The notes beneath the pieces were generated by a model. That model was given only the letters and a program-made list of their open reading frames with translations, had not been told where the DNA came from and made no database searches. Source: an uncultured Eubacteriales bacterium (lineage in GTDB: Bacteria > Bacillota > Clostridia > Christensenellales > CAG-138). From it: a stretch of 64,000 nucleotides of DNA. Each line of letters starts with the position of its first letter. The first letter of the stretch is position 1. Below, piece by piece: positions 8,767 to 53,990 of this stretch. The position numbers and the translations under genes were made by a program. Where the stretch lies: assembly GCA_900546845.1 (NCBI GenBank), contig UREK01000001.1:182774-246773 (forward strand). The letters run 5' to 3'.

Positions 8767-8811
8767 ATAAAAAAGGCCTCTGCGGCAAACGGTAGAGCCA
8801 TCATAAAGCGG

Positions 8812-8855
8812 GAAGAAAACGCCGCCTATCCGGGCAAATCAGGATAGGCGGCGTT
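8812..8855 (-). terminator. intrinsic terminator of the lipid-kinase/PAP2 unit
   Basis: 14-bp stem aacgccgcctatcc/ggataggcggcgtt. On the minus strand it is followed by TTTTCTTC. Confidence 0.55.
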
Positions 8856-8928: not shown

Positions 8929-9612
8929 CTATGCCGCGGCGGCCTTTCCAAAGGTTTTGTCCGTCCAGGCACGCACCTTTTTGTTGTAAATCAGGAAGTA
9001 GATAGGTACGCAGGCGGCGAAGCCCGCATAAATGTCCAGCACGGAATGCTGTTTTACGAAAACCGTCGCAAGCGTGATGAGGATGGCGAGCAGGATGGAA
9101 CCTGCCTTGAGCCAAACGAAGCGCCTCTCTTTGAGTGGCTTTGCGTCAAACAGCGCAAACACAGCGAGCACGGAGCCGATCACATGGATGCTGGGCAGGA
9201 CGTTCGTGTTGGTATCCGCCGCATAGATGAGGCCCATGAGCCGCGTGAGGATGTTGTCCCGCTCAAAGGAGGCAGGGCGCAGGTTCTGCCCGTTGGGGAA
9301 GAGGACGAAGAATACGATGCTCGCCGTAAAACTTACGGCAATCGCGAGCATATAGCGGCTGAAAGCCGGGGCGTCCCGGAAGAGCAGGAAAAGCCCGGTG
9401 GCCACTAAAAACGGATACCAGAGGTAGTATGGGATCACAAAATATTCTACAAAAGGGATGAGGTCGTCCAACGGGGAATAGGATACCCAGTAATTGGAAT
9501 CTGCCGGAACATAACTTTCTACCCAGAAGAAAGCGATGAGGTAAATGGGCAGATACAGTGCGAGCCAGGCGTGTTTGTTTTCTTTGAGCCAGTCCCAAAA
9601 GCGTTTCATCAT
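8929..9612 (-). CDS. PAP2-superfamily integral membrane protein (PAP2_C / sphingomyelin-IPC-synthase-like branch)
   Basis: 227 aa polytopic protein with LPSIHVIGSVLAV and KQHSVLDIYAG (SxH and HxxxD phosphatase-type motifs). 4-nt overlap with the upstream kinase gene. Confidence 0.65.
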   Translation of the reverse strand: MMKRFWDWLKENKHAWLALYLPIYLIAFFWVESYVPADSNYWVSYSPLDDLIPFVEYFVIPYYLWYPFLVATGLFLLFRDAPAFSRYMLAIAVSFTASIVFFVLFPNGQNLRPASFERDNILTRLMGLIYAADTNTNVLPSIHVIGSVLAVFALFDAKPLKERRFVWLKAGSILLAILITLATVFVKQHSVLDIYAGFAACVPIYFLIYNKKVRAWTDKTFGKAAAA

Positions 9613-10505
9613 GCTTCTCTCGTTACCAACCTTAATGCGTTATGCAAATTTTCTACGATGATGTCCGTTTCTCCCGGCGCGTATTCGCCGTCAAGCGTCC
9701 AGGGGACAGCGGCGGGAGAGTGGATCACCGCCCGGGCCGCCGTGCAGGTGTGGATGAGCTTATCATCGTATTGCTGTGTTTGCAGCGAATAGAGGATACG
9801 GCTTAGGTCCATCGGAGCGGCCGGCATCTTGATGAGTGTAACCTCGAACAGCCCATCGTCGATGATGACGCGCGCTGGGTCCATCGTTAGAAACCCGGCG
9901 ATGGAGGTCGAGTTGCTGATCGCGCCGAAGATGTAATCATCCTCGAATGCGTCCCCGCGGTCCGTCTCAAGCCGCAGATGGATGGGGCGGATGTTTGCAA
10001 GATCCTTCATGCCCTCGAAGATATAGGCCATGTGGCCGAGCATGTTCTTGACTTCCTGCGGCGTGCTGTATGCAGCCTCCGTAAATGCGCCGAAGGAGGC
10101 GACGTATGAGAAGCAGCGCCCGTTGAAGCTGCCGAGGTCGATCGTGCGCAGCCTGCCTTCCATAATGTCGCGCGCAGCCTGCATGATGTTAGAGGAGATC
10201 TTGAGGCTGCTCGCGAAATCGTTGGTGCTGCCGGCGGGAATGTAGCCGATCGGGCAGCCTGCTCCGGATTTCAAGAGGCCGTCGATGACTTCGTTGAGCG
10301 TGCCGTCCCCGCCGATGGAAACGACAAGGTCAGCCCCTCCCGCATGCAGGCGGGTGAATTCCGCACCATCGCCACGCTTCCCCGTCATGTAGGCAGTGGT
10401 GACATAGCCGTAATCGGAAAACAGGCGGAGCAGATCAGGCAGATAACGATTTGCCTTTTTGATTCCGGCGCGGGGATTCATCACGAGCAAAAGCCGTTTT
10501 TCCAA
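9609..10505 (-). CDS. diacylglycerol-kinase-catalytic-domain lipid kinase (YegS/DagK family)
   Basis: 298 aa. LLLVMNPRAGIKKA and VVSIGGDGTLNEV (GGDGT) motifs. TTG start at 10505 preceded by GGAGGTG. Confidence 0.8.
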   Translation of the reverse strand: MEKRLLLVMNPRAGIKKANRYLPDLLRLFSDYGYVTTAYMTGKRGDGAEFTRLHAGGADLVVSIGGDGTLNEVIDGLLKSGAGCPIGYIPAGSTNDFASSLKISSNIMQAARDIMEGRLRTIDLGSFNGRCFSYVASFGAFTEAAYSTPQEVKNMLGHMAYIFEGMKDLANIRPIHLRLETDRGDAFEDDYIFGAISNSTSIAGFLTMDPARVIIDDGLFEVTLIKMPAAPMDLSRILYSLQTQQYDDKLIHTCTAARAVIHSPAAVPWTLDGEYAPGETDIIVENLHNALRLVTREA

Positions 10506-10545
10506 AAGGGCACACCTCCAAATGAACCGGAAAACCGGATGCTAT

Positions 10546-10586
10546 GGAAAACAAAATCCGAACCTCCTGGATCGGGGGTTCGGATT
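10546..10586 (-). terminator. intrinsic terminator after the AOS-SDR pair
   Basis: Stem aatccgaacc/ggttcggatt. On the minus strand it is followed by TTTGTTTTCC. Confidence 0.6.
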
Positions 10587-10636
10587 CTATTTTATCCTAA
10601 GAAGCGGTCCGCGTCAACATGGCGTGCCAGTAGGCG

Positions 10637-11428
10637 CTATTTTGCATAGAGCAGGCCGACGAGGCGGTTGATGAACCGGTAGGGCAAGAGCTTGCGCAGC
10701 ATCACGAAGAATTGGTACTGGAGTCCCGCCGTATACTGCGGTTTGAGCGCGCGCTTCTGCGCGAGTCGGTAGAGCTTGCGCGCGATGTACGCGGGCTCCA
10801 TGCCGTGCTCCTCGTCGTGCTCCATCGTGGCGACGGAGCGGGGAAGCGCGGGATAAACGTCCTGCCCCGCAAAACTCTTTTCCCGCGCGGCGGTGAAGCC
10901 GGTCTTGATGTCCCCTGGCATGAGCGCCGCAACGCGGACGCCATACGGGCGAACCTCGTTGGCGAGCGCCGCGCACAGTGCGTTGATAGACGCCTTGGCG
11001 GCGGAATAGAAGCTCTGGAACGGGATGGAAAGCACCGCCGCGACCGAGCTTACGCAGAGGATGCAGCCGGCCCGCTGGGCGCGCATCTGCGGCAGCACGG
11101 CCTGGATGCAATGGAGCGCGCCGAAGAAGTTCACATCAAACTGGCGCTTTGCGTCCGAAGGCTCTGTGAATTCGATCGCGCCAGAGATGCCAAACCCTGC
11201 GTTGCACACAAGAACATCAATGCGCCCCTCTTCTGCAACTATGGCGGCGACCGCGGCTCGGACGCTTTCCGCATCGGTCACGTCCGTCGGAATATGGCGG
11301 ACGGGGCCGCTGTCGTAGGGCTTGCGGGAAAGCCCGTAAACGGCGTATCCTTTTTCGGCGAACAGCGTTGCCGTGGCAAGGCCGATCCCGCCGGAGGCGC
11401 CGGTGATAATGGCAACTTTATTCGGCAT
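10637..11428 (-). CDS. short-chain dehydrogenase/reductase (SDR)
   Basis: 263 aa. TGASGGIG cofactor motif, NAG, and the catalytic YSAAK. Its start overlaps the AOS stop by 11 nt. Confidence 0.85.
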   Translation of the reverse strand: MPNKVAIITGASGGIGLATATLFAEKGYAVYGLSRKPYDSGPVRHIPTDVTDAESVRAAVAAIVAEEGRIDVLVCNAGFGISGAIEFTEPSDAKRQFDVNFFGALHCIQAVLPQMRAQRAGCILCVSSVAAVLSIPFQSFYSAAKASINALCAALANEVRPYGVRVAALMPGDIKTGFTAAREKSFAGQDVYPALPRSVATMEHDEEHGMEPAYIARKLYRLAQKRALKPQYTAGLQYQFFVMLRKLLPYRFINRLVGLLYAK

Positions 11429-12605
11429 CCTGCTTCAGCACCCTTTCGAAAATGTCCAGAGCCTCGTCGAGAAGCGGCTCGGTGAGCGTGGCCATATAGC
11501 TCGTGCGCAGCAGGCACTCCGTTGCGGGCGTAGCCGGCGGCAGCACGGGGTTCACATAAACGCCCTCGTCGTAAAGCCGCTTGGCCGTGGCGAGCGTATT
11601 CATGGTGTCGTAGGTATAGATGGGGATGATAGGCGTCGCGCTCTCGCGGATGGCGATGCCGCGCGCGCGCATGCCCTTGCGCATGTAGGAAGAGAGCGCG
11701 GCAAGGCGCGCCGGAAGCTCCGGCGTCTCCTCCAGGATGCGCAGCGCCTCAAGCGCTGTGGCGCAGCTTGCGGGCGGGATGGATGCGCAGAAGATGAACG
11801 GACGGGAGGCATGGCGCACGTAGTCGACGATGCGCGCGTCCGCCGCCATGTAGCCGCCAAGGCTTGCAAGGGACTTGCTGAACGTACCCATGATGATGTC
11901 GACCTCGTCCGTCAAGCCGAAGTGCTCCGCGGTGCCGCGCCCGTGCACGCCGAGCACGCCAAGGCCGTGCGCATCGTCCACCATGACGCGCGCGCCATAC
12001 TGCTTGGCCAGCCGGACGATCTCCGGCAGGTTGCAGATGTCGCCGCCCATGCTGAACACGCCGTCGGTCACGATCAGCTTGCCGGCGGTCTCCGGGATGT
12101 TTTGCAGCTTCTTTTCGAGATCCGCCATGTCGTTGTGGCGGTAGCGCACCATGGTGGCGTAGCTGAGCTTGCAGCCATCGTAAATGCTCGCGTGGTTCTC
12201 CCGGTCGCAGAGAATGTAATCGTCCTTGCCCGCGATGGCGCTGATGATGCCGAGGTTGCTCTGGAAGCCCGTGGAGAACGTCATCACGGCCTCTTTGCCG
12301 AGGAAGGAAGCGAGTTCCTCCTCAAGCTCTACATGCAGCTCTAGCGTGCCGTTCAGGAACCGGGAGCCGGAGCAGCCGGAACCGTAGCGCTCAAGCGCTT
12401 TGAGCCCCGCTTCGATTACGCGCGGGTGCGTGGTGAGGCCGAGGTAGTTGTTGGAGCCAAGCATGATGCGGCGCTTGCCTTCCATGATGACCTCCACGTC
12501 CTGCCGGGATTCAAGTTTGTGAAAGTAGGGGTAGATGTTTGCAGTGCGGATCTCGTCCACGTAGGGGTTGGTGCATTTTGCGAATAAGTCCATATGATGT
12601 TCCAT
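11418..12605 (-). CDS. PLP-dependent alpha-oxoamine synthase (serine palmitoyltransferase / KBL / BioF family)
   Basis: Within ORF 11418..12698(-): SNNYLGLTTHPRV, DDAHGLGVLG, and GTFSKSLASLGGY (PLP-lysine context). Start at 12605 or 12593 (MEHHMDLF), after GGAAGGA. Confidence 0.85.
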   Translation of the reverse strand: MEHHMDLFAKCTNPYVDEIRTANIYPYFHKLESRQDVEVIMEGKRRIMLGSNNYLGLTTHPRVIEAGLKALERYGSGCSGSRFLNGTLELHVELEEELASFLGKEAVMTFSTGFQSNLGIISAIAGKDDYILCDRENHASIYDGCKLSYATMVRYRHNDMADLEKKLQNIPETAGKLIVTDGVFSMGGDICNLPEIVRLAKQYGARVMVDDAHGLGVLGVHGRGTAEHFGLTDEVDIIMGTFSKSLASLGGYMAADARIVDYVRHASRPFIFCASIPPASCATALEALRILEETPELPARLAALSSYMRKGMRARGIAIRESATPIIPIYTYDTMNTLATAKRLYDEGVYVNPVLPPATPATECLLRTSYMATLTEPLLDEALDIFERVLKQDAE

Positions 12606-12895
12606 TCCTTCCAAATTGGTTTTCGGGCTGTGCCGCGCCTGCGGCGGAAAATAAAAACGGCGCCCGGCGAGTTTGCCAAGCATGTATAATACGAACAAAT
12701 TTTATATCATTTTTGGGATAATAACAAGTTAAAATAGAACCCAGCGCATATTTTTTCGCAAATCATAAGAAACATGCCCCAAAGTGCAGGCTTTGCACCT
12801 TGCCTGGAAAGTGCGCGCTGTGATATAGTATCACCCGAATGCGGTTTGCGGGGCGGCTGCGCCCCACGAAAAAACATTTGTAGGAAATGAACGGT

Positions 12896-15692: not shown

Positions 15693-18600
15693 TTAGGTTT
15701 CCTCCATGCGGCCCAGCCGCTGAAACAGGGCCATATCGTCTGCCAGGCAGGCGGAAGCGAACGCACCCGGGTCGTACTGCATGTGCATCCCCTTGTCCGG
15801 CAGGCGCGGGCGGTAGAGCGCCTCAGGCAGGCGTTTGAGCGTGAGGGAGGTGTTGAGAAGCGCCTGGTGCCGCCGTTCAAGCACCGCGAGGATGTCCATC
15901 GCGTTTTGCAGCGAGACGCGGGAAAAGTTGCGCAGCGCCGTTTCCGGAACGCCGTGCAGGTAACGTGGGCAGGCGTAGGGGAAGATCAGGTTCACGGAGG
16001 GCAGGAGGCCGCCCGTGCGTCGGTCCGCCTGCACACTGTCCCCGCCGAGGAACGGGTATTGCAGGCTTTCGGTGAACCAATAGCGCAGGTTCGGGATGAA
16101 GTACTCGCAATCCACCGCGCGGCCCTGGAAGTCCATCAGATCCTTCCCGCGGCCGGAAAGCACGCCCACGATGATGCGGCGGATCTCCACATCCTCCTGC
16201 CGGAAGATGGGGTCGAGCATTTCGAGCCGGTAGCCGTTGTGCAGCAGGTCGTCCACCAGCAGCACCGGGCGGCGGAAGGATTTGAGTGTGCGCACCTGGT
16301 TCGCAAGGGAGGAATACCCCGGATACTCGGTGATGGTGAAGCCTGTGATGCCCGCATCAAACACCTTGTCCGCATGCAGCGTTTTGGTAACGACGTTGGG
16401 GACAACCTCGCCGGAAAGGATCTTGCCATAGGGCACGCACATGTCCGCCCCCAGCCCTTCGCCGGGCGCAAGGCGCTCTACCCCGGCTGCGGCGCGCACG
16501 CGGTGGACGAGCGCCTGGTTTAAAAGCTCTGTGTTGAAGCAGAGCAGGAGGGCCCCCGGGAACATGGCGGCGATGGCGCGGCGCAGCGCCGGGCGCGCGG
16601 CATAGACCACATCCCGCACGGCGTCATCATCATGCAGCGGCGGCTTGATACGCTCGAGTGCGTCCTGCACGAGCACGAGCGGCGCGCGCATATCCACGAT
16701 AAGGATATCTTCCTGCCCGTGGACGGGCAGGAACCCCATCTGCTCAAGCGTAGGACGCAGCGGGTCGTTTTCCCGGGAGACGTAGAGCGCGGAGGTACAA
16801 TCCCCGGAGAGCGCGCGGGCGAGCAGCTCCGTCACGAGCAGCAGAAGCCCTTCGCGGATGGCCGCGTCCTCCAGCCGCACTTCTTCGATGAGCAGCACCC
16901 GGCCGGCGGCTTCCAGGCGCACGGCTTCGGCGGCTGCCCGGCCGTTGAGCGCGGCGTAAAGGCCGGAAACGTGCAGCGTGCGCCCAAGGGCATAGCCGAG
17001 CGGGCGCGCTTGATCCCGGCGGCGCAGGAGGGCGGCAGAGGGCCGTTCCAGCTCCGCGAGGCGCGCATCAAGTTCCGGGCAGCCCGTGGGCGGGCCGCCG
17101 GGGCGCCAGCTTTCGAAATAAAGCTCGCGCAGGGCGATGATGTGCTTGAGCTGCGGAGAGCGCAGGTAAAGCCCGCGGGAATAGATGAACTCCTGCACGA
17201 CGGGGTCGAGCAGCATGGAAATGTCGAGATTTTTGTCGATGTATTCCCGGATGCGGGAGGAGCTCACGCTCTCATAATATGCGGGCAGGGAAAGCAGGAT
17301 GAGCTTCCCGCGGATCACATCCGAAAGCGGGCGCACGGCGACGCTCTCCGCGCTTTCATCCCGCACGAAGACGATGTGGTTGTAGCCCGCCGCGCCGCCG
17401 GGCAGCCCGGCGCGGTACGCGGAGGCGTTGCGGATCACGTCGCTCCCCGCGACGAGGAAAAGCTCCCGCTCCGGGAAGAGCGATGCAAGGCGCGCCAAAT
17501 CGTCCGGCACGGCGAGGTTCACCGGGATGTCATCCGGAAAAAGGAACACATCCGCAAAGTCCGCGACGGACATGCTGACGATCTGCCGCCGGAGCAGGCG
17601 TGGGAGCGTGCGCTTGCTCCAGGAGAATTCATCCACCGCCAGGTAGACCTCGAAGCCGCGCGCGCGGATCTCCCGCACGATGCGCTTATGCCCGGCGGAG
17701 AACGGATCGAATGTGCCGGGGAAGAAGGCGGCGGGGCGCAGCGGCGGGAACTCGAACGGGCCGAAGGCGACCTCGCATTCGGTCACAAAGCGGTAAAGGT
17801 GGTTGAGCATCGCCGCCTGGTTATAGAAGTCAAGCCGCCCTTCCCGCGGTTCCGCAAGGAGGGTGCGCAGCTTCTTGACCACGCCCGGGAAGCAGGCGCG
17901 CCGCGCCGCGAGCGGCACATAGTTGTTGTAGAAGAAATCGCGGCACAGAACGCCGAGCGCGGTGGAGTGGATCGTCGCGTCATAATGGGCGACGCCTGTG
18001 AGCAGCAGGCCGAGGATGCGTTCCGCGTCCTTTGGATCGAACGCGTCCCCCGCGTCGATGGCGACGGTATAAAGGATCACGCTGAAAGTGCGGATGGCGG
18101 CGCAGGAAGCCTGCACGTTCGCGCTGCGCAGGAGCGCCTCGAGCATGTCCATACATTCGTCGAACTCCTTTTGCGGCAGGCGGCAGATGAGCCGCCCCAC
18201 GCAGGGGGAGATGAAGCGCGCGACCTCGCTCTGCCCGGTTTCGAGCTCCCGCAGCAGGTCGATGACGATCTCGTTGCACTGATCTACGGAAAGATACTTT
18301 GCTATGCGCACGAGGCTCTTCCCCGCGTGTTCGCGCACGGGAAGGTGCTCGCTGACGCAGAGCAGGTTGGAAAGATGCATGGCGATGTGGAACGCGTCCG
18401 TGCGGCTTGCGGCCGCATGGGCCGAAAGCGCGTCGATTTGTACGAGCTTGACCGTCCAATGCACGGCGTTTTTGAGGTTGCTCAGATAAAGTTCGGAAAT
18501 GTCTAGCGCGGGCGGCTCAGGCGCGCCGGGGCAAAGGACGGCGCGCACATGCCCGCAGAGGTAGGCGACGGCGGGCTCGGGCGCGCCGGGGAGCGCATCG

Positions 18601-20429
18601 AGCGCCGCAGCGGCCTCCGCGCGCAGCGCGGGGAATGCGGAATACTTGAGCAAGCAGCGCAGCGCGCCGATGCGCTCCCGCGCCTCCAGCGCGGCAAGCG
18701 CGCTTTTGAGCATGCCGAGCAGCGCGGCATGTTCCTCCTGTGTGAACAGCGAAAACGGCACGTGGGAAAGCGTATCCACCAGCACGAAGCGGTCGTTCCC
18801 CTCGGCAGAGAGGATCCGGCGGTAAAGCGGAAGTAGGTAATGCCGCGCCTCGGCCGGGTCGACGCAGAGGAACAGGCTTTCCGCAACGGTCTTGAGCGAA
18901 TTGGAGATGCGCTGCGCGTGCTTGGGGGAGATCTTGTGATCCGGATGAAGGCAAAGGGCGATGTAATGTTCCCAAAGATCCGTGGATTCCTGCAAAAGCG
19001 CCATCATCGCAGGCGCCATGGCGGTGGGCGGCGCGCCCTCGGGCAGCTCCTTGCGATAGCGCGGGCCGCTGTTTGCGAGGATCTGACCGAGGATGCGCCC
19101 GGCGTTGCGGCGCACGTCGCCTTCCCGGTGCATCAGCAGCTCGTAGAGGAACGCGAGCAGATGGAGCTTGTGCTCCCGGGTCATATAGGTGCTGTATTCC
19201 TCAAACAGTTGCAGATACGTGCGGATGCGGTGCAGGTTCTTTTCGCTGCGCGCTTGCTCCAGCAGCTCCGCGAAGGAAGCGCTGCTGCCGAGCATGCGCA
19301 TGAGGAGCACGTTGTTGCGGAACGTGAGGTTCGTGAGGGAAGCCGCGTTTTCCGCGGGCGTGAGCAGCGCCGGGTCCACGGCAGTAGGGAGGAGAAGCGC
19401 GTCCCCGGAAAGCTCCGAAGGCACACCGCAGCTCAGGAGGAAGCGCTCAAAATCGCGCAGCTTGGCGTACACCGTGCGGTAGCGGCGGCCCTTTTCCTCC
19501 GTCATGTCCGCAAGTTTGCCGAAGATCACGCTGTAAGCCTCCGAGAGGGAATAGATCGAGACGCGTTCGCGGCCTTCTGCGTCCCGCACGCCGCGCACGC
19601 GGAAGTCCGCATAGATGAGCAGCAACGATTCGAGCTGGAGGTTTTCAAACTCAAGATCCCACGTGGAATGGTTGGCCGCGATGTGGGCGATGGCGGGCAT
19701 GCCGCCGCGCGTGAGCCAATCCCAGGTGTAATAATAATGCAGATAGGGGACGCGCCGGGCGTCCTTGCCGCGGCAGCCGAACTTGCCGGCGTCGTGGCTG
19801 AGCGCAGCCGCACTCACGAGCGCAACGTCCACCGGAAGCCCGGCCTTTGCGGCCATGCGCGCCGCGTGCACGGCAACGTTGTGCACGCCGATGGTGTGGG
19901 AAGCCGGGTCGAACGGCATGATCTCCCGGCCGATGCGCAGGAGCGCGACGAAGCGGGCGGCGCAGACGGCGGTGCGGAACGCGGCGTATTCCTCCCGGAT
20001 GAGGCTTTCGGCTTCTTCCTCCGGGGTGAGCACGTAAAGGTCAGTCAAGGGATCGAACGGGCAATGCTCCCGCTCGCGCGCGAGCAGCCAGGTGAACACC
20101 GTGAGGAAGAATTCAAGCGCCTGCGCCTGCGGCTGTGCGGGCGGGGTAAAGCGCGCGTCCGGGAACATCCGGTCCGCCAGATAGGCGTAGATATACGGCA
20201 GCCAGCCGCCGTCCGGCGCGGGAGAGAGCGCTTCCATCACGGGCAGGCACAGCGAGAGCACCTCTTGCGCCATGGCGCGCGCGCCGGGCTCCCGGCGATG
20301 CAGCGCGGCGGGAAAGGCAGCGGCGCCGAGCGCTTCCCGGAGTGCGCGCCGGGAAAGGCCTACGTGCGCGGCATAGCGGCCATAGAGCGTATCGAAGAGC
20401 GGCTTATAATATCCCTGCAAATCGTTCAT
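15693..20429 (-). CDS. 1578-aa multidomain protein: HD phosphohydrolase + helical repeats + HxGH/ISSTxxR nucleotidyltransferase + GNAT-like region + PRTase-like region
   Basis: Single uninterrupted ORF. HD region: HNVAVHAARM...AALSHDAGKF...LLIYADFRV (aa ~175-280). Nucleotidyltransferase: FFPGTFDPFSAGHKRIV and SVSSSRIREYI (aa ~900-1065). PRTase-like: RRPVLLVDDLLHNGYRL (aa ~1385-1400). AGGGGA SD precedes the ATG. Confidence 0.8.
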   Translation of the reverse strand: MNDLQGYYKPLFDTLYGRYAAHVGLSRRALREALGAAAFPAALHRREPGARAMAQEVLSLCLPVMEALSPAPDGGWLPYIYAYLADRMFPDARFTPPAQPQAQALEFFLTVFTWLLAREREHCPFDPLTDLYVLTPEEEAESLIREEYAAFRTAVCAARFVALLRIGREIMPFDPASHTIGVHNVAVHAARMAAKAGLPVDVALVSAAALSHDAGKFGCRGKDARRVPYLHYYYTWDWLTRGGMPAIAHIAANHSTWDLEFENLQLESLLLIYADFRVRGVRDAEGRERVSIYSLSEAYSVIFGKLADMTEEKGRRYRTVYAKLRDFERFLLSCGVPSELSGDALLLPTAVDPALLTPAENAASLTNLTFRNNVLLMRMLGSSASFAELLEQARSEKNLHRIRTYLQLFEEYSTYMTREHKLHLLAFLYELLMHREGDVRRNAGRILGQILANSGPRYRKELPEGAPPTAMAPAMMALLQESTDLWEHYIALCLHPDHKISPKHAQRISNSLKTVAESLFLCVDPAEARHYLLPLYRRILSAEGNDRFVLVDTLSHVPFSLFTQEEHAALLGMLKSALAALEARERIGALRCLLKYSAFPALRAEAAAALDALPGAPEPAVAYLCGHVRAVLCPGAPEPPALDISELYLSNLKNAVHWTVKLVQIDALSAHAAASRTDAFHIAMHLSNLLCVSEHLPVREHAGKSLVRIAKYLSVDQCNEIVIDLLRELETGQSEVARFISPCVGRLICRLPQKEFDECMDMLEALLRSANVQASCAAIRTFSVILYTVAIDAGDAFDPKDAERILGLLLTGVAHYDATIHSTALGVLCRDFFYNNYVPLAARRACFPGVVKKLRTLLAEPREGRLDFYNQAAMLNHLYRFVTECEVAFGPFEFPPLRPAAFFPGTFDPFSAGHKRIVREIRARGFEVYLAVDEFSWSKRTLPRLLRRQIVSMSVADFADVFLFPDDIPVNLAVPDDLARLASLFPERELFLVAGSDVIRNASAYRAGLPGGAAGYNHIVFVRDESAESVAVRPLSDVIRGKLILLSLPAYYESVSSSRIREYIDKNLDISMLLDPVVQEFIYSRGLYLRSPQLKHIIALRELYFESWRPGGPPTGCPELDARLAELERPSAALLRRRDQARPLGYALGRTLHVSGLYAALNGRAAAEAVRLEAAGRVLLIEEVRLEDAAIREGLLLLVTELLARALSGDCTSALYVSRENDPLRPTLEQMGFLPVHGQEDILIVDMRAPLVLVQDALERIKPPLHDDDAVRDVVYAARPALRRAIAAMFPGALLLCFNTELLNQALVHRVRAAAGVERLAPGEGLGADMCVPYGKILSGEVVPNVVTKTLHADKVFDAGITGFTITEYPGYSSLANQVRTLKSFRRPVLLVDDLLHNGYRLEMLDPIFRQEDVEIRRIIVGVLSGRGKDLMDFQGRAVDCEYFIPNLRYWFTESLQYPFLGGDSVQADRRTGGLLPSVNLIFPYACPRYLHGVPETALRNFSRVSLQNAMDILAVLERRHQALLNTSLTLKRLPEALYRPRLPDKGMHMQYDPGAFASACLADDMALFQRLGRMEET

Positions 20430-33616: not shown

Positions 33617-33690
33617 TGGAGCGGGTAAAGGGACTCGAACCCTCTATCTCAGCTTGGAAGGCTAATGTGTTACCATTACACTATACCCGC
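33617..33690 (-). tRNA. tRNA-Gly (anticodon UCC)
   Basis: The reverse complement folds as a cloverleaf: GCGGGTA acceptor, anticodon loop CTTCCAA, GGTTCGAGTCC T-arm, encoded CCA. Confidence 0.9.
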
Positions 33691-33710
33691 GCGCCAAGGA
33701 GGTTGGAAAC

Positions 33711-33795
33711 TGGTGCGGGCGAAGAGACTCGAACTCATACGCCTTGCGGCACCGGAACCTAAATCCGGCGCGTCTGCCAATTCCGCCACGCCCGC
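33711..33795 (-). tRNA. tRNA-Leu (anticodon UAG)
   Basis: 85 nt with a long variable arm. Anticodon stem-loop ccgga-TTTAGGT-tccgg. Encoded CCA. Confidence 0.9.
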
Positions 33796-33815
33796 ATTCG
33801 CGCCGAATAAAAAAT

Positions 33816-33891
33816 TGGTGACCCGTCGGAGATTCGAACTCCGGACACCTTGATTAAAAGTCAAGTGCTCTACCGGCTGAGCTAACGGGTC
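33816..33891 (-). tRNA. tRNA-Lys (anticodon UUU)
   Basis: GACCCGTTAGCTCAGCCGGTAGAGC..., anticodon loop CTTTTAA, encoded CCA. Confidence 0.9.
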
Positions 33892-33896
33892 AAATC

Positions 33897-33971
33897 TGGC
33901 TGGGGTGGCAGGATTTGAACCTACGAATGCGGGAGTCAAAGTCCCGTGCCTTACCGCTTGGCGACACCCCA
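33897..33971 (-). tRNA. tRNA-Gln (anticodon UUG)
   Basis: TGGGGTGTCGCCAAGCGGTAAGGC..., anticodon loop CTTTGAC, encoded CCA. Confidence 0.9.
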
Positions 33972-33999
33972 ACGACTCCGGCGCACCGCTGAACAAAAA

Positions 34000-34077
34000 T
34001 GGGGTGAGTGGTGGGAGTCGAACCCACGACCTCCAGAGCCACAATCTGGCGTTCTAACCAACTGAACTACACCCACC
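34000..34077 (-). tRNA. tRNA-His (anticodon GUG)
   Basis: An extra 5' G(-1) opposite the C discriminator, anticodon loop ATTGTGG, encoded CCA. Confidence 0.9.
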
Positions 34078-34082
34078 ATAAC

Positions 34083-34159
34083 TGGCGCGCCCGCAGGGAT
34101 TCGAACCCGGGACCTACGGCTTAGAAGGCCGTTGCTCTATCCTGCTGAGCTACAGGCGC
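34083..34159 (-). tRNA. tRNA-Arg (anticodon UCU)
   Basis: GCGCCTGTAGCTCAGCAGGATAGAGC..., anticodon loop CTTCTAA, encoded CCA. Confidence 0.9.
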
Positions 34160-39788: not shown

Positions 39789-40472
39789 TTAAAAATAGAG
39801 TATGAACCCGGCGGTCAGCAGCGCCTGCGCGCTGATGTATGTGAGCATCACCCAGAAGTTTGCGCGCGATGGTTTGCGCATGAACATGGCGCAGGCGAGC
39901 ACGCTGTCCGAAACGAGGAACAGCAGCGCCCCGAGCACGAGCAGCGACGCGGCGAACGCCTGCGCCATCGCGCCCGCGCGGATGGCCGCAATGAGCGTCA
40001 GCCATGCGCCGACGTTCACCACGCCGACGAGGCCGAGATAAGCCGGCATCAGCGCGCGCAGATGCCGCTCCCGCACATAGGGGAACAGCCCGCGTGCCAC
40101 GAACGCGACAGCCACGGCATAGGGAAGCGCAAGCGCGAGCGGCAACCAAGGAGCCGGGCTTGCAGCAAACGCGCCCGTCAGGTAATATAAGGTATATGCG
40201 TACAGCACATGGCCGATGGAAAAGCAAACCGCGCCGATGAGGAAGCGCAGCTCCTTGCCGCCCGTGATGAGGAAAAAATCACCCGCCATGCCGAGCAGCA
40301 GCGCGAAAAAAACGGAGGGCTTATACGCGGGCGCATAGGCGGCGTAGAACACGGCGAGCAGCAGGAGCAAGCCGGGCTTCGTGACCGCGCGCAGCCGGTT
40401 GTGCTTAAAATAGCAGGCGTACAGGTGCACGAGGGAAAGCGCCGCGAACAGGGCGATCAAGGCTACGCGCAT
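39789..40472 (-). CDS. YhhN-family (lysoplasmalogenase-like) membrane protein
   Basis: Start at MRVALIALFAALSLVHLYA (40472). GMAGDFFL and FLVSDSVLA motifs. About 227 aa, polytopic. Confidence 0.7.
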   Translation of the reverse strand: MRVALIALFAALSLVHLYACYFKHNRLRAVTKPGLLLLLAVFYAAYAPAYKPSVFFALLLGMAGDFFLITGGKELRFLIGAVCFSIGHVLYAYTLYYLTGAFAASPAPWLPLALALPYAVAVAFVARGLFPYVRERHLRALMPAYLGLVGVVNVGAWLTLIAAIRAGAMAQAFAASLLVLGALLFLVSDSVLACAMFMRKPSRANFWVMLTYISAQALLTAGFILYF

Positions 40473-40617
40473 AAGAAAAACGCTCCTAATACCGCATTTT
40501 TGGGGGATATGGTATGGCTTTTTTTCTATTTTACCACGATCCGCACGCGCTGCATAGCGCTTGTGCATGCCCGCCGCGGCGGGATACAGGAAAACGCTGG
40601 GAACAAAGGAAAAACCT

Positions 40618-44475: not shown

Positions 44476-44889
44476 ATGGAAGGAATCCGCATCGCGGAAT
44501 ACGGGCCGTTCCGCTTGGATGAGCTGCTGCGGCTTTATGGCAGCGTGGGCTGGACGAATTATACCGGGCATGCAGAAATGCTGGAGCAGGCATATGCCAA
44601 TTCGCTCAAAACCCTCGCGGCATACGACGGCGAAACGCTTGTGGGCGTTATCCGCGCGGTCGGGGACGGGTGCTCGATCCTCTATATTCAGGACCTCCTC
44701 GTCCTGCCTGAATACCAGCGCCGGGGGATTGGCTCCGCGCTCACGCGCCGTTTGCTGGCGCTCTATCCGGACGTTTACCAAAAGGTGCTCCTGACGGACG
44801 ACACGGAAAAAACCGTGCGCTTTTACCGCTCGCTCGGCTTCCAGCCTGCGGCGGAGCAGGGCTGCGCGGCGTTCTTCCGGGCGTGGTGA
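44476..44889 (+). CDS. GNAT-family N-acetyltransferase
   Basis: 137 aa. LLVLPEYQRRGIGSALTRRLL (acetyl-CoA-binding Q/RxxGxG/A). Confidence 0.8.
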   Translation: MEGIRIAEYGPFRLDELLRLYGSVGWTNYTGHAEMLEQAYANSLKTLAAYDGETLVGVIRAVGDGCSILYIQDLLVLPEYQRRGIGSALTRRLLALYPDVYQKVLLTDDTEKTVRFYRSLGFQPAAEQGCAAFFRAW

Positions 44890-51159: not shown

Positions 51160-51236
51160 GTGCCCGTAGCCCAGCTGGATAGAGCGACAGACTCCGACTC
51201 TGTAGGCCGCACGTTCGAATCGTGTCGGGCACGCCA
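51160..51236 (+). tRNA. tRNA-Arg (anticodon CCG)
   Basis: GTGCCCGTAGCCCAGCTGGATAGAGC..., anticodon stem-loop acaga-CTCCGAC-tctgt, GTTCGAATC T-loop, encoded CCA. Confidence 0.9.
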
Positions 51237-53758: not shown

Positions 53759-53990
53759 GTTATCCAAAGGTTCGGGTCTGTGGTTGCAAGTCGATGCCAG
53801 TCGCAGGCGAAACGATCCACATAAGCGGGGCAAGGCCCCCGTGAGCATGGTGCGGCTTAGATGTAAGCCCGGCCGGGGCGCAGGCCCCGAGAGAAGCAGT
53901 AGTGGGGGGCGCGCATGCCTAGTAGCGAACCTTCCAGCCGGCGGGTGTGGGGGCAAAGACCAGGTCAGCCGAAATCTGGATAACAAAAAA
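53759..53990 (+). ncRNA. candidate structured RNA / long 5' leader of the zinc-ribbon gene (class unknown)
   Basis: A GC-rich, ORF-poor ~230 nt between an AT-rich promoter and an AT-rich tract. The ends pair (tatcca 53761-66 with tggata 53977-82; ttcgg 53771-75 with ccgaa 53969-73). Internal hairpins at 53854-69 (ggctta/taagcc) and 53874-89 (cggggc/gccccg), plus a gcatg/catgc closing pair (53845-49 with 53914-18). Confidence 0.35.

Follow-up and report, generated by a model that had tools for sequence, protein, structure and literature searches.

A predicted serine palmitoyltransferase and 3-ketodihydrosphingosine reductase gene pair beside a lipid kinase-PAP2 module in an uncultured Christensenella-like Clostridium

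Organisation of the locus

A stretch of 64,000 nucleotides from an uncultured Eubacteriales bacterium of the Christensenellales (CAG-138; assembly GCA_900546845.1, contig UREK01000001.1, positions 182,774 to 246,773 of the forward strand), referred to here in its full length as the window, carries four consecutive minus-strand genes coding for an alpha-oxoamine synthase (AOS), a short-chain dehydrogenase/reductase (SDR), a lipid kinase of the diacylglycerol kinase (DAGK) type and a membrane enzyme of the PAP2 superfamily (Table 1). An original prediction, made from the DNA sequence, had grouped the four genes into a candidate cluster for the synthesis and head-group modification of a sphingoid or capnoid base. 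The first two are predicted here to encode a serine palmitoyltransferase (Spt) and a 3-ketodihydrosphingosine reductase (KDSR), while the latter two are treated as a separate module. The G+C content of the window is approximately 60%, the rnfCDGEAB operon adjoins the locus, and the closest relatives of the window proteins are encoded in metagenome-assembled genomes (MAGs) labelled Clostridia or 'Christensenella sp.'.

The gene order, both overlaps, all of the motifs and the four family assignments of the original prediction were recovered from the open reading frames (ORFs), the sequence itself and a Pfam scan. The AOS and SDR genes overlap by 11 nt, with the AOS stop codon (TAA) at 11418-11420 and the SDR start codon (ATG) at 11426-11428, and the kinase and PAP2 genes overlap by 4 nt at 9609-9612, where ATGA holds the stop codon of the former and the start codon of the latter. 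The kinase ORF begins with TTG, with the ribosome-binding site GGAGGTG lying 8 nt ahead of it, while an alternative ATG start of the AOS at 12593 yields a 391-aa form, as found in public records. The motifs are GTFSKS in the AOS, TGASGGIG (residues 9-16) and YSAAK (141-145) in the SDR, GGDGT in the kinase, and PSIHV (140-144) and HSVLD (189-193) in the PAP2 protein. The Pfam domains identified are Aminotran_1_2 (2.7e-59), adh_short (2.7e-46) and DAGK_cat (8.7e-30), respectively, and for the fourth protein both PAP2 (PF01569; 31.1 bits, cut-off 27.2) and PAP2_3 (27.2 bits, cut-off 27.0).

Table 1. Features of the AOS-SDR and kinase-PAP2 locus and positions of the c70 genes in related loci
Feature	Location	Strand	Length	Characteristics	Evidence
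Spt-like alpha-oxoamine synthase (AOS)	11418..12605	minus	395 aa	pyridoxal 5'-phosphate (PLP)-binding Lys244 in GTFSKS	NCBIfam, PDB, active-site and tree evidence
KdsR-like classical SDR	10637..11428	minus	263 aa	NADPH-type	NCBIfam, linkage to AOS, conserved motifs
DgkB-like soluble lipid kinase	9609..10505	minus	298 aa	YegS/Rv2252/BmrU family, GGDGT	TIGR00147, PDB
Polytopic PAP2-superfamily membrane enzyme	8929..9612	minus	227 aa	His143/His189/Asp193 triad	Pfam, AlphaFold2 (AF2) model
Intrinsic-terminator-like hairpin between SDR and kinase	10555..10586	minus			terminator scan
Terminator-like hairpin downstream of PAP2	8811..8852	minus		GCCGCCTATCC / GGATAGGCGGC then GTTTTCTT	read from sequence
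Sigma-70-like promoter match	10589..10617	minus		TTGACG-17-TAAAAT	promoter scan 10/12, consensus match only
Sigma-70-like promoter match upstream of AOS	12699..12727	minus			promoter scan 9/12
c70, L045	2368-3255		~290 aa	stand-alone E2 catalytic domain
c70, L059	1376-2317		~290 aa	stand-alone E2 catalytic domain
c70, L065	4037-4909		~290 aa	stand-alone E2 catalytic domain
c70, L088	6001-6882		~290 aa	stand-alone E2 catalytic domain

The two gene pairs are separated by a terminator-like hairpin, which the original prediction had placed at 10546..10586. On the coding strand an A-tract lies ahead of the hairpin and a U-tract (UUUUGUUUU) behind it, and the SDR-kinase intergenic region folds strongly, at -54.7 kcal/mol (z = -4.5 against shuffled sequence). 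A second hairpin, downstream of the PAP2 gene, was listed in part by the terminator scan (8837-8822). The better of the two promoter matches sits just upstream of the intergenic hairpin, rather than downstream of it, so that the kinase and PAP2 genes may be transcribed either by read-through or from a promoter that escaped recognition. No riboswitch or other known RNA was found in the AOS leader by an Rfam scan.

The AOS is a predicted serine palmitoyltransferase

The original prediction had pointed out that serine palmitoyltransferase belongs to the AOS enzymes. Among the NCBIfam models, the protein matches best to NF047600 (SerpalmtaseCFB, the Bacteroidota-type Spt) with 540.5 bits, beneath the curated equivalog cut-off of 640, followed by the beta-proteobacterial Spt (418 bits), KBL (397), BioF (385), ALAS (263) and CqsA (210). 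The ranking of PDB sequences is similarly led by the Spt of Sphingobacterium multivorum (SmSpt; 3a2b/8guh) with 438 bits and the Sphingomonas Spts with approximately 309-315 bits, ahead of the KBL (~250-270 bits), cysteate acyltransferase (220-232 bits) and BioF (~200 bits) structures. The AOS shares 51.6% amino acid identity with SmSpt in an alignment without gaps and with the same numbering, and residues described in the SmSpt structures, determined at 1.4-1.55 Å (PMC10196870), can therefore be mapped directly onto the window protein.

Eighteen of the 20 published active-site and pocket residues of SmSpt are identical in the window AOS. For comparison, relatives were collected from one genome per GTDB species, which gave 527 candidate AOS loci, and the best 80 (L001-L080) were analysed, with neighbourhood comparisons covering flanks of up to 10 kb around each locus. 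Across these 80 relatives, 16 of the 20 positions are invariant. The residues identical in the window protein include His138, Asp210, His213, Thr241, Ser243, Lys244, Asn52, Gly80, Ser81, Tyr27 and Phe83, all of which are invariant among the relatives except Phe83 (77/80). In the set that forms the serine site and acyl pocket (Asn52, Gly80, Ser81, Tyr27, Phe83, Leu84, Met271 and Phe272), seven of the eight residues are retained, the exception being Met271, which is replaced by Ile; the one contact described for Met271 in SmSpt is made through its main-chain carbonyl (PMC10196870).

In a neighbour-joining tree with only three anchors (SmSpt and the Kbl and BioF proteins of Escherichia coli), the Clostridial AOS proteins form a monophyletic group that is sister to SmSpt and excludes both E. 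coli proteins in 100/100 bootstraps. The placement inside the KBL or BioF clade that the original prediction had named as grounds for abandoning its proposal was thus not observed, and SmSpt is the closest of the three anchors for all 80 relatives. Taken together, the AOS is predicted from its sequence to be a soluble Spt, sister to those of the Bacteroidota. It resembles the Spts of S. multivorum and Bacteroides thetaiotaomicron (BT_0870) in being a soluble AOS of approximately 395 aa with the same PLP-binding, catalytic, serine-site and acyl-pocket residues, but differs from them in scoring under the NF047600 cut-off, in belonging to a separate Clostridial clade and in occurring in Gram-positive-type anaerobes. 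The Spt-like gene also forms an operon with its reductase gene, whereas BT_0870 and BT_0972 lie approximately 100 genes apart, judging by their locus tags.

A role of the pair in ordinary amino acid or cofactor metabolism, as a Kbl with a threonine dehydrogenase or as a BioF, has been weighed against this prediction. The annotation of AOS genes, which often takes this form, speaks in its favour, with relatives named '8-amino-7-oxononanoate synthase' by JGI. Furthermore, kbl and tdh of E. coli are a textbook case of two neighbouring genes. Against this, the AOS shares only 36.6% identity with E. coli Kbl and 33.6% with E. coli BioF, both of which fall outside the Clostridial clade, there are no bio genes beside the pair across the 80 loci, and its partner is a classical SDR of 263 aa, while E. 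coli Tdh is a protein of 341 aa. The latter enzyme is of the zinc-dependent medium-chain dehydrogenase/reductase type. A KBL, BioF, ALAS or CqsA identity for the AOS was rejected on the hidden Markov model scores, the PDB scores and the tree, and this metabolic role of the pair is considered extremely improbable. A cysteate acyltransferase of the capnine type is disfavoured by the lower scores of such enzymes (220-232 bits, and 438 bits for Spt) and by the absence of a cysteate synthase gene in the vicinity.

The SDR and the conservation of the AOS-SDR pair

The best NCBIfam match of the SDR is to the KdsR family (NF049977), with 229.9 bits over the full length of the protein; this lies under the equivalog cut-off of 400, and the generic SDR subfamily that ranks next (212 bits) trails by a margin of only 18 bits. 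The family was defined from BT_0972 of B. thetaiotaomicron (PMC9278070), with which the window protein shares the classical SDR form, the Gly-rich and YxxxK motifs and NF049977 as best family. It differs in being a relative rather than a curated equivalog and in being translationally coupled to an Spt-like gene. Of the 72 SDR relatives, 70-72 retain the Gly-rich TGxxxGxG motif, NAG, YxxxK and Arg35, which appear in the window protein as TGASGGIG, CNAG, YSAAK and Arg35, the last of which follows beta-2, as is typical of NADPH users. These features point to a predicted NADPH-dependent 3-ketodihydrosphingosine reductase, an enzyme that the original prediction had named as a member of the SDR family, and the stronger argument for it is the genomic linkage to the AOS rather than the family score.

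An SDR gene is located immediately downstream of the AOS gene in 72-73 of the 80 loci. The 80 loci are 65-95% identical, derive almost entirely from uncultured gut or rumen Clostridia, with the carriers of the pair labelled Christensenellales, Oscillospiraceae and Lachnospiraceae, and fall into approximately 38 unrelated neighbourhood groups according to their flanking genes. Thousands of close relatives occur in the protein database under generic names only. When the ORFs of all 80 loci were clustered, only the AOS and SDR recurred as a conserved unit, while the other frequent clusters were antisense shadow ORFs or housekeeping genes (coding for MetK, CdaA, alanine racemase, GH65 and diaminopimelate dehydrogenase, among others). 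No cysteate synthase gene recurs near the pair in these loci. Since the two genes are kept together across such varied neighbourhoods while the remainder is variable, the conserved unit is a two-gene AOS-SDR cassette.

Some loci depart from this arrangement. L051, L052 and L058 encode an Spt-like AOS without an SDR partner, and the role of the AOS in these loci may differ. In L051 and L058 the AOS gene is followed by genes coding for an EamA-type transporter and a diaminopimelate dehydrogenase-like protein, while in L052 a diaminopimelate dehydrogenase-like gene is located downstream of the AOS after two short ORFs. Close relatives of the AOS-SDR pair (67% identity) are also found in MAGs labelled Kiritimatiellaeota and Sutterella (L066, L069 and L071), a placement explained by mis-binning or else by the genes having been transferred horizontally from the Clostridia.

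The kinase-PAP2 module

The kinase scores 160 bits against TIGR00147, above the cut-off of 118.65, and contains the DAGK_cat and YegS_C domains. The best equivalog is the PRK13337 diacylglycerol kinase (183 bits, under the cut-off of 385) and the best PDB match is DgkB of Staphylococcus aureus (2qv7; 141 bits), while no sphingosine kinase (SphK) or ceramide kinase (CerK) structure occurs among its PDB matches at E <= 1e-5. The DgkB proteins of S. aureus and Bacillus subtilis, which are the soluble diacylglycerol kinases of Gram-positives, share the domain architecture of the kinase and include its best structural relative. The kinase differs in scoring under the DgkB cut-off, and its gene is in Clostridia often translationally coupled to one for a PAP2 protein.

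For the PAP2 family, 973 relatives were detected. Residues H143, H189 and D193 are invariant in the family, which also conserves the motifs FPNGQxLRP, DTNTNVxPSxH and KQHSxxD. Of the canonical phosphatase residues, the family retains Arg112-Pro113 and lacks the Lys of motif C1 and the Ser-Arg of motif C3, such that the complete C1 (KxxxxxxRP) and C3 (SRxxxxxHxxxD) motifs of the PgpB/LPP type are not found. The AF2 model of the window protein has a pLDDT of 91.4, and its best Foldseek match is the human sphingomyelin synthase-related protein (SMSr) in complex with ceramide, with weak statistics (TM 0.58, E = 3e-3). This is followed by a complex of inositol phosphorylceramide (IPC) synthase with ceramide and by Aur1, behind which rank PgpB, LpxE and LPP1, with TM values of 0.43-0.49 for all matches other than SMSr. 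The support that this model lends to the label of a sphingomyelin synthase (SMS)-like fold is weak but real. In common with the SMSr and IPC synthases of the PAP2_3 type (8ijq, 9vj4 and 9ivc), which are the nearest folds, the protein has a His/His/Asp triad and is without the canonical C1 Lys and C3 Arg. It is only 11-20% identical to them and differs in its smaller size, in the invariant, C1-like Arg-Pro of its family and in the wide distribution of this family in Clostridia.

Both genes of the module follow the AOS-SDR pair in only two of the 80 loci (L001 and L002), and a third (L003) has the kinase without the PAP2 gene, while the other 77 are without the four-gene adjacency. The lack of conservation in relatives that the original prediction had named as counting against one conserved four-gene cluster was thus what emerged, and that part of the proposal is not upheld. 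In seven independent PAP2 contexts, a DAGK gene precedes the PAP2 gene in three (L085/86, L087 and L092), the PAP2 gene precedes a DUF2238 gene in two and it stands alone in two, and in all seven the 6-10 kb around the PAP2 gene are free of AOS and SDR genes. Between the window kinase and the DAGKs coupled to the same PAP2 family elsewhere the identity is 52-60%, and the PAP2 proteins share 54-60% identity with one another, which fits an orthologous pair that predates its placement next to the Spt-like genes. The terminator between the pairs, the restriction of the adjacency to L001-L003, the occurrence of kinase-PAP2 pairs elsewhere without AOS or SDR and the similarity of the kinase to DgkB all argue that the module is separate from the AOS-SDR operon. 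The four genes probably form two independent transcription units, which are neighbours only within this genus-level lineage. The DUF2238 gene, which codes for a membrane protein, is an alternative partner to DAGK for the PAP2 family, and overlaps the preceding PAP2 gene by 4-37 nt in L081 (6001-7498), L091 (10001-11445) and L090 (659-2111).

A single pathway involving all four gene products would see the Spt and KDSR make the base and the kinase phosphorylate the base or a ceramide or, in a variant, the SMS-like PAP2 enzyme transfer a phospho-head group from a glycerophospholipid while the kinase recycles the diacylglycerol released. The adjacency of the four genes on one strand is consistent with this, as are the ceramide-bound SMSr and IPC synthase and the Aur1 structures at the head of the PAP2 matches and the absence of the C1 Lys and C3 Ser-Arg of phosphatases, and the kinase-PAP2 coupling would suit diacylglycerol recycling after head-group transfer. 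A DAGK-family gene is also found directly upstream of the AOS-SDR pair, on the same strand but in another gene order, in the distant locus L080 (1663-4736), from a MAG labelled Butyricicoccaceae, which represents a second, independent juxtaposition of these families. In Caulobacter crescentus, furthermore, the sphingolipid locus includes CpgB, a kinase of the LCB5/DAGK family. The limited distribution of the adjacency, the seven PAP2 contexts without the pair, the strong terminator, a PAP2 gene that was lost from, or never present in, L003, the weak Foldseek statistics, the kinase being nearest to DgkB and the lack of a ceramide synthase among the window ORFs scanned all stand against it. A joint pathway in either form is thus considered unlikely. 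For an involvement of the kinase and PAP2 in sphingolipid synthesis, as originally suggested, the PAP2 fold, the L080 locus and the CpgB precedent provide weak backing, while conservation, the terminator and the DgkB likeness weigh against it.

N-acylation and the genes beside the pair

As the original prediction had stated, no ceramide-synthase-like gene is present among the window ORFs scanned, in which the only acyltransferase is a GNAT protein of 137 aa (44476-44889), nor is such a gene a recurrent neighbour of the pair across the 80 loci. A gene resembling long-chain fatty acid-CoA ligases is located beside the pair in seven of the 80 loci (L045, L059, L061, L063, L065, L070 and L073), as well as in L088, which fits an Spt that depends on acyl-CoA. 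In L038 the ligase beside the pair is instead MbcS-like, of the short or branched-chain type.

Four of the loci with a long-chain ligase gene (L045, L059, L065 and L088) also encode a stand-alone protein, termed c70, beside the pair, and in L065 and L088 the genes form tight AOS-SDR-c70-ligase strings. The fold of c70 was confirmed as that of an E2 acyltransferase catalytic domain, in which an invariant DERxADG replaces the canonical DHRxxDG motif, with Glu in the place of the catalytic His, alongside an invariant YHH. This protein belongs to a very large Clostridial family annotated only as '2-oxo acid dehydrogenase subunit E2', the genes of which also occur alone, are often followed by a long-chain acyl-CoA ligase gene and are sometimes fused into AOS-SDR operons. 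The proposal of c70 as a dedicated partner of the pair is, given the size of the family and its occurrence alone, only partly supported, and as an N-acyltransferase it is only a candidate. Neither c70 nor a long-chain acyl-CoA ligase is encoded in the window. A more far-reaching scheme, in which abundant Gram-positive-type gut Clostridia would make complete phosphosphingolipids from a combination of parts without precedent, is very unlikely. It would join the Spt-KDSR pair to c70, acting on acyl-CoA supplied by the adjacent ligase as a ceramide synthase of a third, convergent kind, and to the SMS-like PAP2, which would take a phospho-head group from a glycerophospholipid while the kinase recycles the diacylglycerol.

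Proposed pathway and comparison with known systems

The explanation that accounts best for these observations, and which is held to be probable with appreciable room for doubt, is the synthesis of a sphinganine-type long-chain base by an Spt-KDSR operon in a Christensenella-like Clostridium, with an unrelated and widespread module of a DgkB-like kinase and PAP2 as its chance neighbour. On the basis of homology, the PLP-dependent AOS would condense L-serine with a long-chain acyl-CoA to 3-ketodihydrosphingosine, which the coupled NADPH-type SDR would reduce to sphinganine. The order of steps would be of the Bacteroides type, with the KDSR reaction preceding N-acylation. Most probably, the PAP2 enzyme would form or use up either diacylglycerol or a lipid phosphate, with diacylglycerol being re-phosphorylated by the kinase, and the two would make up a general Clostridial membrane-lipid module that is not dedicated to sphingolipids. 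From the overall interpretation in the original prediction, the AOS-SDR pair as the starter of a long-chain base is therefore retained, while the kinase and PAP2 as part of one conserved cluster are not.

Several points weigh against this explanation. The AOS and SDR both score under the equivalog cut-offs, with the narrow lead of KdsR over the generic SDR subfamily, the AOS tree is a neighbour-joining tree of few anchors, and the carriers are uncultured. SmSpt recognises the serine hydroxyl mostly through water molecules and also accepts Ala, Gly and homoserine (PMC10196870), so that the amino acid substrate of the AOS is not fixed by its sequence. With regard to the second part of the explanation, namely that the kinase-PAP2 unit is unrelated to the pair, the nearest folds of the PAP2 protein, the DAGK gene at L080 and Caulobacter CpgB point the other way.

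The breadth of substrates accepted by SmSpt, the sub-threshold scores and the MbcS-like ligase of L038 are compatible with a pair that makes another 2-amino-3-hydroxy lipid, such as a 1-deoxy base from Ala or Gly, a capnoid from cysteate or a shorter-chain signalling amino alcohol. The capnine or sulfonolipid pathway, with its cysteate acyltransferase and 3-ketocapnine reductase, follows the same logic of an AOS and an SDR (PMC11211663). The invariance of the serine-site residues Asn52, Gly80, Ser81 and Ser243 and of Tyr27 in the acyl pocket and the near-invariance of Phe83 argue against such a product, the cysteate acyltransferases score approximately half of what Spt does and no cysteate synthase recurs nearby, and the adjacent ligases are mostly of the long-chain type. 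Another amino lipid is judged unlikely as the product.

The predicted sphinganine pathway can also be compared with the locus of C. crescentus, which comprises Spt, bCerS, CerR and CpgABC. In both, an Spt gene is clustered with a kinase of the DAGK/LCB5 family, but Caulobacter acylates before reduction, by means of the ceramide reductase CerR, whereas the order predicted here runs from Spt through KDSR to sphinganine. Equivalents of bCerS, CerR, the acyl carrier protein and CpgA/C were not seen here, and the kinase is DgkB-like and not conserved with the pair.

In the literature searched, the coverage of which was incomplete so that an earlier mention is possible, no Spt or sphingolipid synthesis was described in Clostridia or Firmicutes, in agreement with the original prediction, which regarded the pathway as not established in this lineage. 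Reviews and primary papers attribute the sphingolipids of gut bacteria, which act on host immunity, on ceramide pools and on barrier function, to the Bacteroidota, and metagenomic counts of 'spt' have been obtained with queries from Bacteroides or with the generic COG0156. A survey of the capnine pathway that mentions Firmicutes (PMC11211663) employed permissive thresholds which would catch any AOS or SDR. The pair thus probably belongs to a pathway already known, here in a lineage that is abundant and was not expected to have it. If so, the sphingoid bases of human and ruminant guts would have a second origin that has gone unrecognised, with 527 candidate loci among the species representatives and single sequences present on 160-210 contigs. 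The genes would have been overlooked because their scores lie slightly under the curated cut-offs used in annotation, and the function of sphingolipids in bacteria presumed to be without an outer membrane would become a question. An E. coli co-expression assay has been published for BT_0870 and BT_0972 (PMC9278070).

Other features of the window

Upstream of the AOS gene, a minus-strand ORF coding for a multidomain protein of 1578 aa (15693-20429) has as its sole Pfam match a weak cytidylyltransferase-like domain at residues 902-1062, and an ORF of 1426 aa occupies the corresponding upstream position in L001. The minus strand also encodes a YhhN-family membrane protein, which is membrane-lipid-related (39789-40568); this family includes lysoplasmalogenases. 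Six tRNA genes (Gly, Leu, Lys, Gln, His and Arg) are clustered at 33617-34159 on the minus strand, and a further tRNA-Arg gene is located at 51160-51236 on the plus strand. Distant from the AOS-SDR locus, a raiA RNA motif (Rfam RF03072, 190.6 bits) occurs on the plus strand at 53767-53977.

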